DNA of 64,000 bases from Arenicellales bacterium. Lineage in GTDB: Bacteria > Pseudomonadota > Gammaproteobacteria > Arenicellales > JAHEKD01. Made by a program: the position numbers and the translations under genes. The stretch lies in NCBI GenBank assembly GCA_965204695.1, contig OZ242007.1:451859-515858 (forward strand). Direction: 5' to 3'. The notes beneath the pieces are model-generated. The model was not told the origin of the DNA. It worked only from the letters and a program-made list of their open reading frames with translations, and searched no databases. How positions within the stretch are numbered: the stretch's first letter is position 1; every line of letters starts with the position of its first letter. Shown in pieces: positions 8,790 through 30,873 of this stretch.

Positions 8790-9066
8790 TTTACATCTCC
8801 CAATGTCAAAAAAACTAACCCACGTAATGTGTTTGACACAATGGTGTGGCACTTTCCGCACCGCCATCGAGGCAGATGTCCCTGGTTTTATATCACTCCG
8901 TACAAACCTGAGCGGCGAGGCATTTGGCAGGTCTCCTGACTTACGATTTTAGTACGACTTAACCTTCCCGGTTTCCCAGTGGTATTTCAAAGTCACACAA
9001 TCGGTTACAGTTGCGGGGACAGTCACGGAATTACACCGTATTCCCTATTAATCTTACGAACCAAAT
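8790..9066 (-). promoter_or_regulatory. Cobalamin (AdoCbl) riboswitch leader of the btuB-like operon
   Basis: The minus strand reads GGTTCG..AATAGGGAATACGGTGTAATTCCGTGACTGTCCCCGCAACTGTAACCG...ATACCACTGGGAAACCGGGAAGG...AGTCAGGAGACCTGCC. The last stretch is the B12 box, at 8926-8940 on the plus strand. A GGGAGA Shine-Dalgarno lies just before the ATG at 8787. Confidence 0.9.
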
Positions 9067-9148
9067 GTGTGTGTAGAGTAACGAAATTATTGTTTATTTG
9101 CAATAATTCAGATGCTTTTTAATGGCTCTAAAACTAATGATAAAACAG

Positions 9149-9887: not shown

Positions 9888-9963
9888 TGGCGTCCCCACG
9901 GGGATTCGAACCCCGGTTGCCGCCGTGAAAGGGCGGTGTCCTAGGCCTCTAGACGATGGGGAC
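9888..9963 (-). tRNA. tRNA-Glu (UUC)
   Basis: The reverse complement is GTCCCCATCGTCTAGAGGCCTAGGACACCGCCCTTTCACGGCGGCAACCGGGGTTCGAATCCCCGTGGGGACGCCA. This is nearly identical to enterobacterial tRNA-Glu, and the CCA is encoded. Confidence 0.95.
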
Positions 9964-10164: not shown

Positions 10165-10240
<76 letters not shown>

Positions 10241-24106: not shown

Positions 24107-25621
24107 ATGAGTCGAACAGCACGTTCCCGTAGAGAAGCCAGGCAACGCGATGTTGTTAAGGCTCCAGCCTATATTCAAAGAAAAATCCCATTTTACGAAT
24201 TTTTGGGCGAGGAAGGGTTAGTTAAGCTGGAGGAGCAAGCAGATTGGTTGATACAAGAAATAGGCATGGAGTTTCGAGATGATCCTAAGGCTCTTGAGAT
24301 ATGGAAAGCTGGAGGCGCTGATGTAAATGGAACCCGAGTTAAACTTGAAAAAGGAATGGCACGTGAGTTATGCAAAACTATTCCGCAAAAATTTACTCAG
24401 CTCGCTCGCAATCCTGACAAAAGTGTTGAGATTGGCGGCACATCACAAGTGTTTGCCCCGGTCTATGGTCCCCCATTTGTTAGAGATTTAGAGGGCGGCA
24501 GGCGCTATGGAACCATAAAAGATCACGAGAACCTCGTCAAAATCGCTTATAGTCTGCCCAGCCTTCATCACACTGGTTTGGTCATCTGCGAACCCTGTGA
24601 CGTACCAGTTTCCAAACGCCATTTCGACATGGTTTACAACCACATGCGCTATAACGATAAACCTTTCCTCGGCGCAATCACTGAAAAATCTCGTGCTCAG
24701 GATTCGGTAGACATGGCCCGAGTGTTATTCGGTGAAGAAGTTCTGCAGAACAACTGCGTGATCATGGGTAACGTCAATACCAACTCGCCCTTGCTAATTG
24801 ATCGCGTGGTTACCGAAGCCGCCCAGGTTTACTGTGGAGCAAGTCAAGGCTTGATTGTTGCTCCATTTATTTTGGGTGGAGCAATGGGCCCTGTGACAAC
24901 ATCTGCTTCCATCGCTCAGGCATTGGCAGAAGCCATGATGGTTGGCGCATTTACACAACTAGTACGACCTGGTGCTCCCTTTATTTTAGGAAACTTCCTG
25001 TCGTCCATGAGTTTAAAAAGTGGTGCCCCAACCTTTGGCATGCCAGAACCGGTAATGTCGAATTTAGTAATTGGACAACTAGCCCGACGTTTAGGTGTGC
25101 CACTTCGTTGTGGGGGCTCCTTAACAGCATCTAAATTGCCCGATGCTCAGGCAGCAGCAGAAAGTGCTGACTCGATGCTTTCGACAGCTCTTGGTGGTGC
25201 AAACTTTGTTTTGCATTCTGCCGGTTGGCTCGAAGGCGGATTAGTGACCGGTTATGAAAAACTGGTTTTAGATGCAGACAGACTAGGCGCCTATCAGGTT
25301 ATGCTGTCAGGATTACCGATGGATGAGAATGCCATGGCACGTTCAGCATACTCTGAAGTCGAACCGGCTGGCCATTTCCTGGGCTGCAGCCATACTATGG
25401 GTAATTATCAAACTGCTTTCTATGATGCCAAACTCTCTGACAGCGAAAGTTGTGAACAATGGGAAGAAAATGGCTCCAAAGATTCAGCAAAGCGTGCCTA
25501 TGAACGTTGGAATCAAATTCTAGACGAGTATGAATTACCACCAATGGATGAAGCCAAAAACGAAGAATTATTAGAATTCATCGCTAAACGTAAAGCCGAA
25601 ATCCCGGATGCGTGGTATTAA
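24107..25621 (+). CDS. MttB-superfamily methyltransferase (trimethylamine methyltransferase family, non-pyrrolysine type)
   Basis: The 504-aa continuous ORF has an MttB-like sequence throughout and no in-frame TAG. Confidence 0.75.
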   Translation: MSRTARSRREARQRDVVKAPAYIQRKIPFYEFLGEEGLVKLEEQADWLIQEIGMEFRDDPKALEIWKAGGADVNGTRVKLEKGMARELCKTIPQKFTQLARNPDKSVEIGGTSQVFAPVYGPPFVRDLEGGRRYGTIKDHENLVKIAYSLPSLHHTGLVICEPCDVPVSKRHFDMVYNHMRYNDKPFLGAITEKSRAQDSVDMARVLFGEEVLQNNCVIMGNVNTNSPLLIDRVVTEAAQVYCGASQGLIVAPFILGGAMGPVTTSASIAQALAEAMMVGAFTQLVRPGAPFILGNFLSSMSLKSGAPTFGMPEPVMSNLVIGQLARRLGVPLRCGGSLTASKLPDAQAAAESADSMLSTALGGANFVLHSAGWLEGGLVTGYEKLVLDADRLGAYQVMLSGLPMDENAMARSAYSEVEPAGHFLGCSHTMGNYQTAFYDAKLSDSESCEQWEENGSKDSAKRAYERWNQILDEYELPPMDEAKNEELLEFIAKRKAEIPDAWY

Positions 25622-26527
25622 TCAATTATTGTCTAATTGATGAATCTTCTTCAGCCGGTAATCCAACTTCCCGGGAGTGATACCCAAATCCTTAGCTGCA
25701 TTTGATAATTGTCCTTTACCTTTATTCTCGGTCATGGCTTCTTCTAAGTATATTTTTTCTAATCCTTGCAGATGTTTCCAAAGCTCGGACTTATCATTCC
25801 CAGAGTATAGGAAAAATGACAGATCTCTTTTAGCCCGCCAGGACGGAGAAAAAGGCATAAAAATAGAATAATCTAGAATTTTATTATTATTAGTCGCATA
25901 AAAGCATCCGAACAGGAATATTGTGGTCGTTATTGGGAGCAATACAGCTGCATTAACATTTTTCCCAATTGCCATTAACAGAAGAACTATTAGTGTACCT
26001 AGAAACAAAGGAAATAATGAAATTAAAAGTACTGCGGCCTTTGCTCTTAGGTAAGAAAGCTTTTTGCGATCATAAACAGCTTGGATAATATAATAGATCG
26101 ATAAAATCAGACAAACTACTGCATATAACTGAAAAATATAGTAGTAATCTCCTGGGATACGGGTATATCCGATACCACCTTCTTTAAACCCAGCAATTAT
26201 AAGATCACTAATAAATAACAAGCTTGATTGCATGACACCAAACGCAAAAATTAGATCAGGCAGCTTTGTATCAAGTTTTGCTAATGCTTTAATCACGACT
26301 AGAATCATTGCCAAGACCAAAATCAAGAAAACATAAAAAAGTTTAAAACCGATAATAGAATGAAGCATTCCAGATAATCCCATAAACTCAATCAGACTCA
26401 ATGCAAATAAAAAAACAAGTAACCAAATAAAAGCAGTTCCTACATTCCTCTTGTCGATTATTAATTTTATGGCAAGGAATACCTTCAAAATAAGAGCAGC
26501 CAGTGAAAAAATACTATATGCAAACAT
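25622..26527 (-). CDS. Paralog A: 7-TM membrane protein with a C-terminal Fis-type helix-turn-helix
   Basis: About seven hydrophobic helices are visible. The conserved motifs are 'TRIPGDYYYIFQLYA' and 'FFLYSGND'. The C-terminus 'LEKIYLEEAMTENKGKGQLSNAAKDLGITPGKLDYRLKKIHQL' follows the NtrC/Fis HTH pattern. Confidence 0.6.
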   Translation of the reverse strand: MFAYSIFSLAALILKVFLAIKLIIDKRNVGTAFIWLLVFLFALSLIEFMGLSGMLHSIIGFKLFYVFLILVLAMILVVIKALAKLDTKLPDLIFAFGVMQSSLLFISDLIIAGFKEGGIGYTRIPGDYYYIFQLYAVVCLILSIYYIIQAVYDRKKLSYLRAKAAVLLISLFPLFLGTLIVLLLMAIGKNVNAAVLLPITTTIFLFGCFYATNNNKILDYSIFMPFSPSWRAKRDLSFFLYSGNDKSELWKHLQGLEKIYLEEAMTENKGKGQLSNAAKDLGITPGKLDYRLKKIHQLDNN

Positions 26528-26951
26528 TTAAATCCCTAATCTGAAAATTATTCCCTTCATTAAAATTAATTTACAACATTACTATTTCGTTATTTATTGT
26601 GAATATTAGACTTAATTCCATCATCTTGTTGGTAAGAATTATATCTGATGGACGGCATCAAATTTTATAGTTTTCTGATGTCCTGGATACAAATTTACCA
26701 AACATTTTATACCACAAGTAAAACTTCTAGCTAGCAAAGTTATTCCTACCTGGATATGTTGAGCTACAACTCAAATGAAATTGAAGCCAATGATTGTTCA
26801 CAAATTAGAAGAACGTGAAATTACTCAATCATAATGTATATGAAGCTGAACTAAATATTAGGTGAGTAAGACTTATCTTATAGGGATGAAGTAAAAATGT
26901 GAGTTTAAAAAAAGATATAGAAAGCTGAGACTTCAGATGCCTGGTATTAAT

Positions 26952-27863
26952 TTACTTAACATCTAATTGATGGATAGTCTTTAAACGGTAATCAAGTTTT
27001 CCTGGGGTATAACCAAGTGTTTTAGCTGCTTTTGTAATTTTACCCTTATTCTTTTTTAGAGCATCTTCAATATACAATTTTTCTAACTCCAACAATTTAT
27101 CCTGTAAGTTGATCTGATCATTTCCAGCATAAAGAAAAAATAATAACTTGTTCTTTTTACGCCACGATAGTGTTCCCGGAATCAGAATAGAAAAATCAAT
27201 AATCCTGCTATTTGAACAAGCGTATATACAGCCACCTAAGAAAATAGTTGTAGCAATCGGAACAATCACCACAGCATTAACTCTAAAACCTAAAGCCATC
27301 AAAAATATAATAATTAATACTGACATGAGCAACGGCATTAACGAAATTAAAATTATTGAAGAACGCGCCCTTATTACATTGTTCCTTTCACTCAAAGTAA
27401 AAGTTTTTTTACATATTATATAAATACAACTTATCAACTCACAAATTGCAAAAAGTTGGAACAAAAAATAAAAATCACCTGGAACACGAGTAATCGTGGA
27501 ATGTAATATCTCCACATCGGCAATTATTAAATCGCTAAAAAAAATTAATACAGCGATTGCAAGGCCGAGGCTATGAACAAAATTCAAGATAACTAAACTT
27601 ATCTTCGTAACTTGCAACACCAAAACAGTAAATAATATGAGTGAAAGTATTGCTAATACATAATAGATCTTAAGTGTTAAAAGGTTTTTACCAATAATTG
27701 TAAACGTTAAAAACTCAACAAAATTCAGTAAAAAAAGCGTCGTAAGCAAAATAAATAATACCTGCTTGAGATCATTCTTCTGCTTTCTAGCCACAAAAAA
27801 TAAAAAATAACACTTCGCTAACAAGGCAATCAGAGAAGGTATTGCGACCACTGTTAGTTGCAA
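26952..27863 (-). CDS. Paralog B: 7-TM membrane protein with a C-terminal Fis-type HTH, in an operon with the KAS III-like gene
   Basis: It aligns with paralog C along its full length. Its TTG start has a GGAGG 7 nt upstream and lies 17 nt after the KAS III-like stop. The C-terminus reads 'LEKLYIEDALKKNKGKITKAAKTLGYTPGKLDYRLKTIHQL'. Confidence 0.6.
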   Translation of the reverse strand: MQLTVVAIPSLIALLAKCYFLFFVARKQKNDLKQVLFILLTTLFLLNFVEFLTFTIIGKNLLTLKIYYVLAILSLILFTVLVLQVTKISLVILNFVHSLGLAIAVLIFFSDLIIADVEILHSTITRVPGDFYFLFQLFAICELISCIYIICKKTFTLSERNNVIRARSSIILISLMPLLMSVLIIIFLMALGFRVNAVVIVPIATTIFLGGCIYACSNSRIIDFSILIPGTLSWRKKNKLLFFLYAGNDQINLQDKLLELEKLYIEDALKKNKGKITKAAKTLGYTPGKLDYRLKTIHQLDVK

Positions 27864-27880: not shown

Positions 27881-28882
27881 CTACATATGTGACGACAATG
27901 CGATTTGAGATATGGACAGACCACTACCAGCTCCCATCAACAAGATATTCATTGATTTTATATTACTTATTTTTAATGTTCTACAAAAATTTACCGGCAT
28001 AGTTGCAGAAGCAATATTACCAAGTTTAGGGAAAGTTTTTGACATTCTGTTTTGATCAACTTTTGCCATTTCAGAGAATCTTTGATGTGGCCTTTTTCCA
28101 ACTTGATGTGTAATTAGAAAATCTGGTTTTTCCCAATCCAATTTCTTTAAAGTTTTTCTAAGTAAGCTTTTATGAGTTATAAGCATTCTCGCACATATTT
28201 TGTCCATGATCATCTGACCTGAAAATTCATTTTCTGGAAAATGATAGTGACATAACTTGTAACTTTGACTATCGGATTTCATTTCGAAATGGATGAACTT
28301 CAATCCTACTTCACTTGGATAAGAAGTGATTAACATTGCCCCAGCAGCATCGCCAATTGTTAGTGCACCAAACATACTTTGAAATTTACTATGGTCATGA
28401 TTAATCGAATTGATAGCTAACTTTGTAATATTTGAAGAAATCTCAGCTGTAACTAATAGTATTGAATCAAATCCCCTTTTTATAAACGAGTCAGCAACAA
28501 ACATACCATCTGAGAAACCATGACAAGCATTTGTTATATCAAAGCAAAACCCATTACTACCAATATTGGCCTGGACTATATGTGAAGTACCAGGTTCCAA
28601 GTAATCTCTTTCGATTCCACAATAAATTACACAATCAATTTCGCATGCATCGATGTTATTTTCATATAACAATTTCTCCGCAGCTTTTGATGCCATGAAT
28701 GAATGCTTATTTTCTCTAGAGTTAGCAAATCTTCTTTCAATTATTCCCATTCTTTCGTTAATGAAAGTCCGAGAAACACCAAAATTTGTCTCCGATTTTA
28801 GTTCATCCATTAAATCTTCAGATTTAACTATTTCTCCAGGGATAAATGCACTTGCCGCGTAAATATATGAATTAATTGACAT
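27881..28882 (-). CDS. Stand-alone 3-oxoacyl-ACP synthase III (FabH/KAS III)-family condensing enzyme
   Basis: The Cys-His-Asn triad contexts are 'ITNACHGF', 'ITHQVGKR' and 'LGNIASATMP'. I prefer the ATG at 28882 (GGAGG 8 nt upstream, product about 333 aa) over the TTG at 28984 given in the ORF track. Confidence 0.8.
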   Translation of the reverse strand: MSINSYIYAASAFIPGEIVKSEDLMDELKSETNFGVSRTFINERMGIIERRFANSRENKHSFMASKAAEKLLYENNIDACEIDCVIYCGIERDYLEPGTSHIVQANIGSNGFCFDITNACHGFSDGMFVADSFIKRGFDSILLVTAEISSNITKLAINSINHDHSKFQSMFGALTIGDAAGAMLITSYPSEVGLKFIHFEMKSDSQSYKLCHYHFPENEFSGQMIMDKICARMLITHKSLLRKTLKKLDWEKPDFLITHQVGKRPHQRFSEMAKVDQNRMSKTFPKLGNIASATMPVNFCRTLKISNIKSMNILLMGAGSGLSISQIALSSHM

Positions 28883-29002
28883 TTTAGTAACCTCCAATTT
28901 CAATATTAAATTTCTGTAATCAGAAACAATATCAAAAAAAATTTTTATTGCATCTGAAATTAGATGCTTTAAGTTGTTTTTCAATCTTGATGGCTAGGGG
29001 TT

Positions 29003-29067
29003 GGTGCGTTGCACCCTGGTGGGTACGCAGGTAGGTAAGATATCGCGTACCCACCTTATTTTCTTCT
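29003..29067 (+). terminator. GC-rich double hairpin with a plus-strand T-rich tail, located in the 5' leader region of the KAS III-like gene
   Basis: The first hairpin is GGTGC-GTT-GCACC (29003-29015). The second has GGTGGGTACGC (29018-28) pairing with GCGTACCCACC (29045-55) across a 16-nt loop, followed by TTATTTTCTTCT. No plus-strand gene ends here. Confidence 0.4.
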
Positions 29068-29358
29068 GTAGCTGGAATATTATTATGGCTACTTTGTATT
29101 TAGTTATTAACACCCTCTCTCTAAGTTGCTCATAATATTTACCTATAGGTTGTAGCAACCAGATAAATATACGACATGGATGTCAATGAGCAACTTTGTT
29201 TCCCCTGGTATACAAAGGCGCCACGGATAAAATCACTAACCCCAGTTTAAATTACCGGCAAATAAAGACTACTTAATATTGTGAGAGAAAATTAGGAATT
29301 TAGTAATTTTTTCCAGAAATAATCCAGAACACTTGGCTTTTGTTATTGATCATGGGTG

Positions 29359-29607
29359 TTAATCGTTATTGCTTAGAGCGAGTTGTACACTTTGAATATC
29401 ATCATGCGCTTTACTCTTTTTTACACTAATGATTTCGTTTTCATGCTCGGCAGTTAAATCTGGAAGCTCAGTTCCTTTTTTAAGATGAACAGATTTGATT
29501 TTTATGCGGTATTGACTACCTTCATCTTTTATTATTTCCCCTTTTATGAAGGTGTCTTTGAAAATCGTTAGTTCTGGTTTTGGAACAAAGACTTCTTTGT
29601 TGCTCAT
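29359..29607 (-). CDS. Hypothetical 82-aa soluble protein translationally coupled to paralog C
   Basis: An ATGA overlap with the stop of paralog C lies at 29604-29607. The protein is charged and lysine-rich, and I recognised no motif. Confidence 0.45.
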   Translation of the reverse strand: MSNKEVFVPKPELTIFKDTFIKGEIIKDEGSQYRIKIKSVHLKKGTELPDLTAEHENEIISVKKSKAHDDIQSVQLALSNND

Positions 29608-30545
29608 GACATTTCCTTGGATTTTGTTTTTGCCTTTTGGTTCTCGATCTTATGAATTGATTTAAGTCTATAATCAAGTTTTCCTGGTGTGTAACCCAAC
29701 GCATCCGCTGCCCTTGAAACTTTACCATTGTTCTGTTTAATTGCATCCTCGATATACTTTTTTTCCAAGTTCAAAAGCTGTGATTGAAGATTGATTTTGT
29801 TAGAGCCAGCATATAAAAAGAACATCATATCATGCCTGTTTTTCCATGAAACAGTCCCGGGTATTAGCATCGACAAATCAAAAACACGCTGATTCATACA
29901 AGCATAGATACATCCAGCCAGGAATATAGTCGTCATTATTGGGATAATGACTACAGCATTCATCTTATAACCTAGCGCCATAAAAATAATTATCGTAATC
30001 GCTGATATAACTAATGGTAAAAGCGAAACTAGGATAATGGATGATTTTGCCCGCATAAGCTGATTAGAAGTGCTGTGAGAAAATGTTGCTTTGACAATCC
30101 AGAATAAACAGACAAATAGTTCACTGATGGCGAAAAACTGAAATAAAAAATAAAAATCTCCAGGCACGCGGGTATAAGTATGATGAAGTCTTTTTATATC
30201 TACAATGATTAGATCAGTAAAAATTATTAGAAAAATTACTATAAGTCCAAGCGCATGTAGCAATAATACGTATCTTATTCTCTTGTTCAAAATCAAGGCT
30301 ACCAGATGAGTCGCCAGACCCAGAGAAATTATGACTGAAATAAAATAGAGAATAAATAGCCAAAGCTGATCACCTAATGGTGTGAATAGACAAAATTCAG
30401 TTAAATTCAAAAAACTCAAAGCGGTAACTAGTGCGATTAAAGTAGTATGCGCTACCTTTTGATGCTGCCGAAACACATAAAAAAGAAAATAACACTTAAT
30501 AAGCAAAGCAATCAGGGACGGTATTGATAATAGTGAAAATGACAT
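29604..30545 (-). CDS. Paralog C: 7-TM membrane protein with a C-terminal Fis-type HTH
   Basis: Conserved motifs 'TRVPGDFYFLFQFFA' and 'FFLYAGSN' are present. The C-terminus reads 'LEKKYIEDAIKQNNGKVSRAADALGYTPGKLDYRLKSIHKI'. Confidence 0.6.
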   Translation of the reverse strand: MSFSLLSIPSLIALLIKCYFLFYVFRQHQKVAHTTLIALVTALSFLNLTEFCLFTPLGDQLWLFILYFISVIISLGLATHLVALILNKRIRYVLLLHALGLIVIFLIIFTDLIIVDIKRLHHTYTRVPGDFYFLFQFFAISELFVCLFWIVKATFSHSTSNQLMRAKSSIILVSLLPLVISAITIIIFMALGYKMNAVVIIPIMTTIFLAGCIYACMNQRVFDLSMLIPGTVSWKNRHDMMFFLYAGSNKINLQSQLLNLEKKYIEDAIKQNNGKVSRAADALGYTPGKLDYRLKSIHKIENQKAKTKSKEMS

Positions 30546-30873
30546 ATTCTTTAAAACAACATCATACTATTCAATGGATAAGAATATTCATTATTGATTA
30601 GAGATTAGCTTTTTCTTTTATACCAGCACGAACAATAAAAACATCGTAACTATTTGTTTTTAAACAACTCCTGATTTCAGAAATAACTTTTTTCGTTATT
30701 CTGAATTCAAAATTTAACTTGAATTGCAAAAAATTAACGATATGATTAACGCTCTCTCGCCAAATGTAAGTCACTCGCTTACATAATTTAGGTGTGTCTG
30801 AATAGGCACACCTATTATTTACTTTACATCTAGGAATTCTGAAACAATCTATCCTCATTTTAACCACTATTTT

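Follow-up and report, generated by a model that had tools for sequence, protein, structure and literature searches.

Seven-helix membrane proteins with a C-terminal Fis-type helix-turn-helix and their pairing with a KASIII-type gene

Bacterial regulators that unite membrane sensing and a DNA-binding domain in one polypeptide, the transmembrane transcription regulators (TTRs), include ToxR, CadC, TcpP, VtrA, BcrR and ArnR, which presumably remain anchored when they sit on DNA. In a census of 50,302 TTRs, defined as single proteins with at least one transmembrane (TM) region and a recognised DNA-binding domain, HTH_8 occurs in 72 and HisKA_7TM in 22 (PMC10269533). The present analysis concerns a 64-kb stretch of an Arenicellales bacterium genome (contig OZ242007.1, positions 451,859 to 515,858), here called the window, and three paralogous receptor genes within it, A, B and C. 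Each encodes seven predicted TM helices (7TM) followed by a C-terminal helix-turn-helix (HTH) of the Fis/NtrC type, and all three products fall under the TTR definition. They differ from the regulators named above in the N-terminal position of the 7TM part, in an HTH that is neither a winged helix nor of the XRE type, and in having essentially no periplasmic domain. The first-pass annotation of the window had called this layout the opposite of that of ToxR, CadC and TcpP, and rightly so, with a polytopic sensor at the N-terminus and the HTH at the C-terminus. What it overlooked is the main clue, a conserved partnership with a gene for a condensing enzyme of the β-ketoacyl-acyl carrier protein (ACP) synthase III (KASIII) type.

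The nearest described precedent of these 7TM-HTH_8 proteins is Rsp of Neisseria gonorrhoeae, in which the membrane part of PilS is fused to the DNA-binding domain of PilR (PMC10269533). Common to both are a polytopic N-terminus derived from a sensor kinase, a C-terminus with the DNA-binding domain of a sigma-54 activator, and the absence of kinase, receiver and ATPase (PMC10269533). Going by its description, Rsp differs in its PilS-type membrane domain and in being a lineage-specific remnant, whereas the proteins considered here form a large conserved family with a partner enzyme. The DNA-binding domain of PilR is of the HTH_8 type. A second point of reference is HisKA_7TM, a membrane sensor domain of histidine kinases for which no ligand is known (PMC5847659). 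The N-terminal seven-helix domain of these kinases is homologous to that of the present family; their output is HisKA/HATPase, in contrast to the directly fused HTH here.

For a lipid-like ketone signal that is made by one enzyme and sensed in a polytopic membrane domain encoded alongside, the familiar examples are CqsA/CqsS and LqsA/LqsS. CqsS and LqsS are six-TM histidine kinases with a phosphorelay, and CqsA and LqsA are pyridoxal phosphate-dependent acyl-CoA transferases; neither part is homologous to its counterpart here. LuxR solos provide another parallel, to the several receptors per enzyme and the orphan receptors described below. One such solo, PluR, reads the photopyrone quorum-sensing signals of Photorhabdus, which are made by PpyS, an OleA-like ketosynthase with an essential E105 (PMC4578411). 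By description, PpyS/PluR and DarABC/PauR share with the arrangement proposed below a stand-alone OleA-like ketosynthase, a catalytic Glu acting in trans, a dialkyl signal and a transcription factor that reads it (PMC4578411). Their reader is a soluble LuxR solo, in contrast to a membrane 7TM-HTH_8 protein encoded immediately downstream of the synthase. Against this background, A, B, C and their relatives are interpreted here as membrane-bound one-component regulators that sense a lipid made or used by the partner enzyme, an interpretation judged slightly better than an even bet.

Architecture and extent of the receptor family

An AlphaFold2 (AF2) model of B, computed from a 132-sequence alignment of the family, has a pLDDT of 93.2 and a pTM of 0.87. 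Its membrane helices span residues 3-26, 31-52, 61-86, 91-109, 132-155, 159-190 and 200-217, with which the hydropathy peaks concur; a beta-hairpin (114-128) occupies the fourth loop, and five cytoplasmic helices follow, up to residue 302. In 127 of the 132 family members, the lysines and arginines of loops 1, 3 and 5, which are net positive, outnumber those of the N-terminus and loops 2, 4 and 6. Seven helices together with this positive-inside bias place the N-terminus outside and the HTH inside. The N-out, C-in topology originally proposed by eye is thus also the one predicted by model and charge bias, with an HTH that faces the cytoplasm. The cytoplasmic tail after TM7, put at about 90 residues in the first pass, is present at a corrected length of ~86.

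The membrane part of C matches HisKA_7TM (PF16927) over residues 11-224 with 17.7 bits (E 0.0034), under the cut-off of 28.6 bits, and A and B have no Pfam match to this domain. Across the family, 29 of the 132 members match at E<=0.01 (best E 1.8e-10), and two long relatives, P0085 and P0129, exceed the cut-off. Homology of the 7TM part to HisKA_7TM is thereby supported by sequence at the family level, and the window copies, which score below the gathering threshold, count as divergent members. When the B model was compared with the PDB by Foldseek, only generic 7TM bundles resembling G-protein-coupled receptors were returned, at E >= 3e-3 and TM-scores of 0.3-0.5; hence there is no solved sensor homologue and no function that could be transferred.

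Conservation within the membrane domain is concentrated in K17, N47, E50, Y67, Y68, G116, T125, G129, Y132, P177, N196 and P202, which are kept family-wide. The polar residues N47, E50, Y67, Y68, T125, Y132 and N196 lie on the predicted periplasmic or outer-leaflet side; in the AF2 model most of the polar positions map to the hairpin of loop 4, to loop 6 or to those ends of TM2, TM3 and TM5 that face the periplasm. This placement is read as a candidate ligand-binding site near the outer leaflet. Just past TM7, Pro229 is retained in 96% of the family, and 'TDIRRF(I/L)PFS.ER' is found in many members.

The C-terminal ends of A, B and C, at residues ~256-295, match Pfam HTH_8 (PF02954) with 22.6, 35.2 and 34.2 bits, respectively, where the gathering score is 22 bits. 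The Fis-type tail noticed in the first pass is also recovered by a profile of the cytoplasmic tails of 32 family members, run against solved structures. It matches Aquifex NtrC4 (4fth/3e7l, E 2e-11), Fis (1fip, E 5e-10) and the DNA-binding domains of NtrC (1ntc), FleQ and ZraR, with E values from 2e-11 to 3e-7 overall. The alignment covers Fis residues 30-97, helices B to D, and so includes the dimer-interface helix along with the HTH. Matches in NCBIfam are sub-threshold throughout and concern the last ~45 residues of NtrC-type activators (MobR, PrdR, NtrC, LuxO).

In the wider family, HTH_8 is matched in 94 of the 132 members (E<=0.01), C-termini carry the canonical '..GN...AA..LG..RSTLY..L.' signature, and E261 and A280 (B numbering) are the HTH residues conserved throughout. 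The recognition helix of the window clade is constant as 'TPGKLDYRLK', with 'GKLDYRLK' in 12/12 clade members. A longer pattern that had been ascribed to all three copies, 'LEK.YIE[DE]A.....GK...AA..LG.TPGKLDYRLK.IH', is exact in B and C; A departs from it with 'YLEEA' and a two-residue insertion ('GKGQLSNAA'). Only ~35 residues separate TM7 from the HTH in A, B and C. Domain scans and the AF2 model agree with the earlier view that no transmitter, receiver or ATPase domain is present. A, B and C also lack any match to an AAA+ domain, the sigma-54 interaction module (Sigma54_activat, with its GAFTGA loop) by which membership of the bacterial enhancer-binding proteins (NtrC family) is judged.

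B and C are the closest pair, as described earlier, with 54% identity against 42% for A-B and 37% for A-C, and the 64-kb window holds no fourth copy. Identity among the three rises from 23-40% in TM1-4 through 38-62% in TM5-7 and 61-72% in the HTH domain to 87-93% in the recognition helix. Of the suggested diversification of ligand or operator specificity by triplication, only that on the sensor side appears to have taken place. Divergent sensors beside a conserved recognition helix point to one operator type shared by the paralogs, which probably differ in what they sense. Orthologues of A (76% identity) and B (74%) exist in an Arenicellales metagenome-assembled genome (MAG), that of B in the equivalent position. 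The MAG orthologue of A lies upstream of the KASIII gene, unlike A itself, so gene order has been rearranged. C is an additional B-like copy with no orthologue at the MAG locus.

How widely this architecture occurs depends on where one looks. Searched exhaustively with a profile, 1.84 billion representatives of clusters at 50% identity yield 635 proteins with E<=1e-3, of which 524 reach E<=1e-10; most are ~300 residues long and aligned full-length. The architecture is therefore not rare in nature, but it is rare in reference genomes. A word-indexed search returned only 13 close relatives, one of them in the MAG, which is syntenic with the window, and its repeat with the 132-sequence profile added a single further protein. 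Scanning contigs with the over-specific peptide GKLDYRLKxI gave two loci only, and a degenerate DNA pattern picked out 23 metagenomic stretches, 3 with true family members. The plasmids of PLSDB contain no receptor homologue and only weak KASIII matches. Members that were looked up are almost exclusively metagenomic and annotated as 'hypothetical protein' or unnamed. The first-pass annotation could not place the architecture; it can now be placed, with a membrane part that falls in divergent HisKA_7TM, a large family, and TM proteins with HTH_8 already catalogued.

A minority of relatives, 765-880 residues long (P0085, P0088, P0101 and about 10 more), have the same kind of 7TM domain and HTH_8 with ~550 residues between them. 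This middle region shows weak similarity to the AAA+ domain of sigma-54 activators (Sigma54_activ_2, E 0.001; PspF, E 0.004), and the long forms may show how the short form arose. By eye, the region has a degenerate AAA+ look and a coiled-coil-like stretch, and no Walker A motif is seen in P0085.

The KASIII-type gene beside the receptors

In the window, the KASIII gene sits between C and B and ends 17 bp ahead of the start codon of B, a TTG with GGAGG 7 nt upstream inside this gap. The same order, KASIII directly upstream of a receptor on the same strand, is found in the MAG (locus L001), L005, L009, L012, L013, L023, L035, L037, L038 and a JGI contig. The receptors that follow a KASIII gene include P0013 (28% identical to B), P0134 (22%), P0018, P0024 and P0131. 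The pairs of L023 and L035 came from the metagenome pattern scan, and in L037 (6001-8553) it is the 850-residue long form P0085 that follows the KASIII gene. The association also holds in reverse: three KASIII homologues with 35-44% identity have a family member directly downstream in 3/3 cases (L039, L040, L041).

Pair statistics cover the 13 loci with DNA, without the JGI contig; with L001 and the window being orthologous, they represent 12 lineages. Enzyme gene and receptor gene are -1 to 59 bp apart at 11 of these loci, and the two others have gaps of 170 and 197 bp. Paired receptors are 20-74% identical (median 27%) and their enzymes 33-83% (median 38%); at such low receptor identities, the linkage has survived very deep divergence. 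From locus to locus, identity between enzymes goes along with identity between receptors (r 0.89), a correlation that shared descent alone could explain. Genomic contexts of about 20 loci were sampled. In the module contexts examined, only KASIII recurs: the flanking small open reading frames (ORFs; 82 residues here, 61-122 elsewhere) are mutually non-homologous, and there is thus no conserved third gene. The pairing is deeply conserved and apparently not yet described; so far, most of its occurrences come from metagenomes, of which several are marine, and from uncultured Gammaproteobacteria.

In several loci, receptors outnumber enzymes. There are three receptors in the window and two each in L001, L038 and L041; A, C, the MAG orthologue of A, the receptors of L002 and L004 and one of the two in L038 have no adjoining enzyme gene. 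In L041 (6029-7894) two receptors stand in tandem after KASIII. The two of L038 (3423-4337 and 7257-8201) are 3 kb apart on opposite strands, with one KASIII gene nearby. As L041 and L038 are unrelated lineages, receptor expansion is recurrent and not peculiar to this genome. In L002 (5929-10912), the orphan receptor P0005 lies downstream of genes for an AMP-binding enzyme and an acyltransferase, separated from them by a 1.7-kb stretch that holds no ORF of at least 120 residues. A tblastn search with KASIII gave only a weak match there (E 0.007), perhaps the remains of an enzyme gene.

The Cys-His-Asn triad is kept in 13/13 module enzymes. Among solved structures, the best relatives of the partner enzyme are those of Xanthomonas campestris OleA (3row, 3s21, 4kti and others; E 1.6e-25, 93 bits), followed by FabH structures at 80 bits and below. 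The HMMER alignment sets OleA 'SRDYLEPSTASIV' opposite 'ERDYLEPGTSHIV' of the window, with OleA 'YLEPST' aligned to 'YLEPGT', so that partner enzyme and OleA have in common the triad and an 'L-E-P' motif whose Glu, counted from the catalytic Cys143, is OleA E117, the counterpart of E105 in PpyS. Glu-Pro stands at this position in 13/13 module enzymes, against Phe in E. coli FabH. In OleA, E117 enters the active site of the partner subunit and is required for non-decarboxylative Claisen condensation, and OleAs have a common [LIVYF]-E-P motif (PMC8180931). That motif is complete in 4/13 module enzymes, those of the window, L001, L038 and L040. The β-keto acid made by OleA decarboxylates spontaneously to a ketone (PMC7064751). 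By its residues, the partner enzyme may likewise condense two acyl thioesters head to head.

Proposed signalling route and its rivals

In the proposed route, a HisKA_7TM-type sensor would act through the juxtamembrane linker of ~35 residues on the Fis/NtrC-type HTH. The HTH would engage DNA as a dimer, as in all solved relatives of this domain, with the protein still anchored in the inner membrane. Receptor and enzyme are encoded as a conserved two-gene module, enzyme gene then receptor gene, usually co-oriented and nearly abutting. The enzyme product would be a hydrophobic dialkyl compound, either a pyrone-like molecule or a 2-alkyl-3-keto acid, from which a ketone would form by decay. Either it or a closely related lipid would move into the membrane and be bound at the conserved polar cluster on the outer-leaflet side of the 7TM bundle. 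Movement relayed via TM7 and the Pro229 linker could then alter operator engagement by the paired HTHs, in the sense of binding or release, and the targets probably include the promoter of the module itself. The extra copies A and C would be additional or 'solo' receptors for different ligands or chain lengths that act on the same kind of DNA site.

Two versions of this lipid-sensing scheme can be told apart. In one, put forward tentatively, the lipid would serve as an autoinducer-like signal between cells; the OleA/PpyS-type Glu, the orphan receptors and the four loci in which one enzyme has several diverged receptors favour this version. In the other, which seems unlikely, sensing of this lipid would serve homeostasis of the membrane or of fatty acids; it is favoured by the fad genes of two loci and by the general rule that regulators sense substrates of adjacent enzymes.

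Several observations weigh against the scheme. The HTH_8 score of A barely clears its cut-off (22.6 versus 22 bits), and the recognition helix of the window clade is less basic than that of Fis; when the two are aligned, P, D and Y stand opposite R85, R89 and K90, basic residues with which Fis contacts DNA. A regulator encoded beside an enzyme often senses the substrate of that enzyme, and adjacency indicates a functional link, not its direction. The case for OleA-like chemistry consists of one conserved Glu and a modest preference for OleA (93 versus 80 bits). The residue before this Glu is P, E, T or Q in 9 of the 13 module enzymes, mostly as P-E-P or E-E-P in the distant ones. Unlike OleA, to which its similarity is low (93 bits), the partner enzyme has no oleB, oleC or oleD near it, and neither in the window nor in the MAG is there a trio of AMP-ligase, short-chain dehydrogenase and hydrolase around it. 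The enzyme thus stands outside the olefin/β-lactone pathway and would release its primary condensation product. Genes of β-oxidation adjoin the module in L005 (fadA/fadB) and L037 (fadE/fadA/fadB), a better fit to a metabolic role. The candidate operators described below derive from a two-genome comparison and a motif picked post hoc. Finally, literature searches found no paper describing this 7TM-HTH_8 family.

The metabolic alternative takes the enzyme to be a KASIII of the PA3286/FabW type, which would condense medium-chain acyl-CoA from β-oxidation with malonyl-ACP. The receptor would respond to fatty acids from outside the cell, or to the composition or physical state of the membrane, and switch the enzyme operon on or off. 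This homeostasis loop is doubtful, though it has several points to commend it. Among NCBIfam models, the enzyme fits a generic KASIII one best (NF006720), with 162 bits and so short of the cut-off, and FabW/PA3286 enzymes divert β-oxidation intermediates to fatty-acid synthesis (PMC4549310), in line with the fad genes of L005 and L037. A membrane-embedded sensor with very short loops would suit bilayer sensing, and a response to the membrane is what the TTR census proposes for many regulators of this kind (PMC10269533). These fad genes, however, adjoin in just 2 of ~14 contexts, and multiple diverged receptors and orphan receptors are hard to square with a single bulk property. The OleA/PpyS-type Glu of 13/13 module enzymes, where E. 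coli FabH has Phe, also speaks against it, in a comparison that took in the module enzymes, OleA and E. coli FabH.

Two further alternatives concern the receptor alone. Regulated proteolysis of membrane-bound regulators is well known, and cleavage near the Pro229 motif could free a soluble Fis-like domain once the 7TM part is triggered. Such a latent factor would account for the strong conservation of the segment after TM7 and would avoid bringing chromosomal DNA to the membrane. It is nevertheless improbable: no protease gene is conserved in the module, in which KASIII alone recurs, the freed fragment of ~75 residues would still have to dimerise, and ToxR and CadC act while anchored (PMC10269533). 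Less probable still is that the short proteins are decayed remnants of larger 7TM-fused NtrC-like activators with little or no regulatory role, or passive repressors or competitors. In its favour are the relatives of 765-880 residues, with their 7TM part, weak AAA+-like middle and HTH_8, one of them (in L037) following a KASIII gene, and the description of Rsp of Neisseria as a PilS/PilR remnant (PMC10269533). Yet most of the family has the short form, which is full-length across hundreds of 50%-identity clusters; the residues of its sensor hardly vary, and neither does the recognition helix within the window clade. Conservation of this kind indicates purifying selection on a working protein.

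Should the autoinducer-like version hold, the module would be a widespread and unrecognised one. In it, an OleA/PpyS-type enzyme would make a membrane-soluble dialkyl ketone or pyrone for a 7TM receptor to read in the bilayer. This receptor would double as the transcription factor, so that no kinase, G-protein-like or second-messenger step intervenes, and the copies would hear related signals via one operator type. This picture is offered with less than even confidence. If the proposed route holds, it would be the shortest known signalling path from a membrane lipid-like signal to a promoter, as the receptor itself would touch DNA. The repertoire of bacterial cell-cell or lipid sensing would also grow by a new class of receptor and, probably, by new signal chemistry. 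The orphan domain HisKA_7TM, found in many bacterial and archaeal histidine kinases, would gain its first candidate ligand class, and synthetic biology a compact two-gene part of synthase and receptor. On a conservative reading, there are several hundred uncharacterised membrane-bound regulators with a clear, testable partner enzyme.

Upstream DNA and neighbouring features

The features of the receptor locus are collected in the table below. The ~85 bp before the ATG of the KASIII gene are ~95% identical to the MAG, whereas the proteins are 74-84% identical. Two perfect palindromes in this region, GCATCT-N6-AGATGC (28950-28967) and TTTCTG-N4-CAGAAA (28911-28926), are leads to candidate operators. 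The heptamer TTTC[AT]GA, a motif chosen after viewing the data, occurs 7 times against 0.69 expected by Markov-1 simulation in the regions upstream of A (26528-26951), KASIII (28883-29358) and C (30546-30873), each of which holds at least 2 copies. The longest possible MAG ORF starts downstream of the conserved stretch, which is hence mostly non-coding there. An N-terminal extension of the enzyme, for which the window ORF could reach back to a TTG at 28984, was considered as the source of the conservation. It was rejected for most of the stretch because of this MAG ORF start, its absence in distant enzymes and the length of the database protein, 333 residues.

Farther upstream, ~115-175 nt from the KASIII start, lies a GC-rich double hairpin within an AT-rich spacer, the single occurrence in the window. 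It has a folding z-score of -3.8 and no T-run after it, and the stem of its second hairpin carries one compensatory change relative to the MAG. Rfam gives no match at the conserved hairpins, which may represent an RNA element, a site for protein binding or a repeat element. Scans of this AT-rich region for sigma-70 promoters and terminators gave sites no more frequent than in shuffled sequence, and no promoter is therefore claimed. Distant KASIII genes are preceded by a 'TGTCATGAT'-like motif, which was dropped, being more simply a -35 hexamer.

Coordinates of the receptor genes, their parts and associated features in the window
Feature	Position	Strand	Remarks
Paralog A	25622-26527	minus	301 residues; same 7TM + HTH architecture as B
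Paralog B	26952-27863	minus	303 residues; coordinates identical to those of the first-pass annotation
B residues 253-303 and stop codon: HTH_8 (Fis/NtrC-type) DNA-binding domain	26952-27107	minus	Pfam and tail profile
B residues 218-252: juxtamembrane linker with Pro229	27108-27212	minus	AF2 model and family conservation
B residues 1-217: seven predicted TM helices with beta-hairpin in periplasmic loop 4	27213-27863	minus	AF2 model, conservation, charge bias and HisKA_7TM matches in the wider family
KASIII-type condensing enzyme	27881-28882	minus	333 residues from ATG 28882, and 333 in the database; ACP_syn_III + ACP_syn_III_C
Candidate promoter/operator region	28883-28970	minus	ends right before the KASIII start; shares ~95% identity with the MAG
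GC-rich double hairpin, GTGGGTACGC-N16-GCGTACCCAC plus second hairpin	28995-29056	minus	conserved at L001 8805-8860
ORF of 82 residues	29359-29607	minus	overlaps the stop of C by 4 nt
Paralog C	29604-30545	minus	313 residues; same architecture, B-like (54% identity)

The 82-residue ORF is 59% identical to an 83-residue ORF of the MAG, located there upstream of the A orthologue. It has no match in Pfam, and since distant modules do not contain it, it probably does not belong to the core module. An ORF of 91 residues antisense to B (27148-27423, plus strand) is most likely a by-product of AT-rich sequence rather than a gene. Around the enzyme, the window and L001 share genes for QueF, YceI, cytochrome b561, MTTB and LysR. 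The gene of the MTTB family (trimethylamine methyltransferase-like; 24107-25621, plus strand) converges on paralog A with zero bases between their ends, and an MTTB gene adjoins a family member in L001 and L004 as well. Elsewhere in the window, and unrelated to the receptors, are two tRNA genes (9891-9963 and 10168-10240, minus strand) and a cobalamin riboswitch (8909-9080, minus strand) that scores 114.6 bits.

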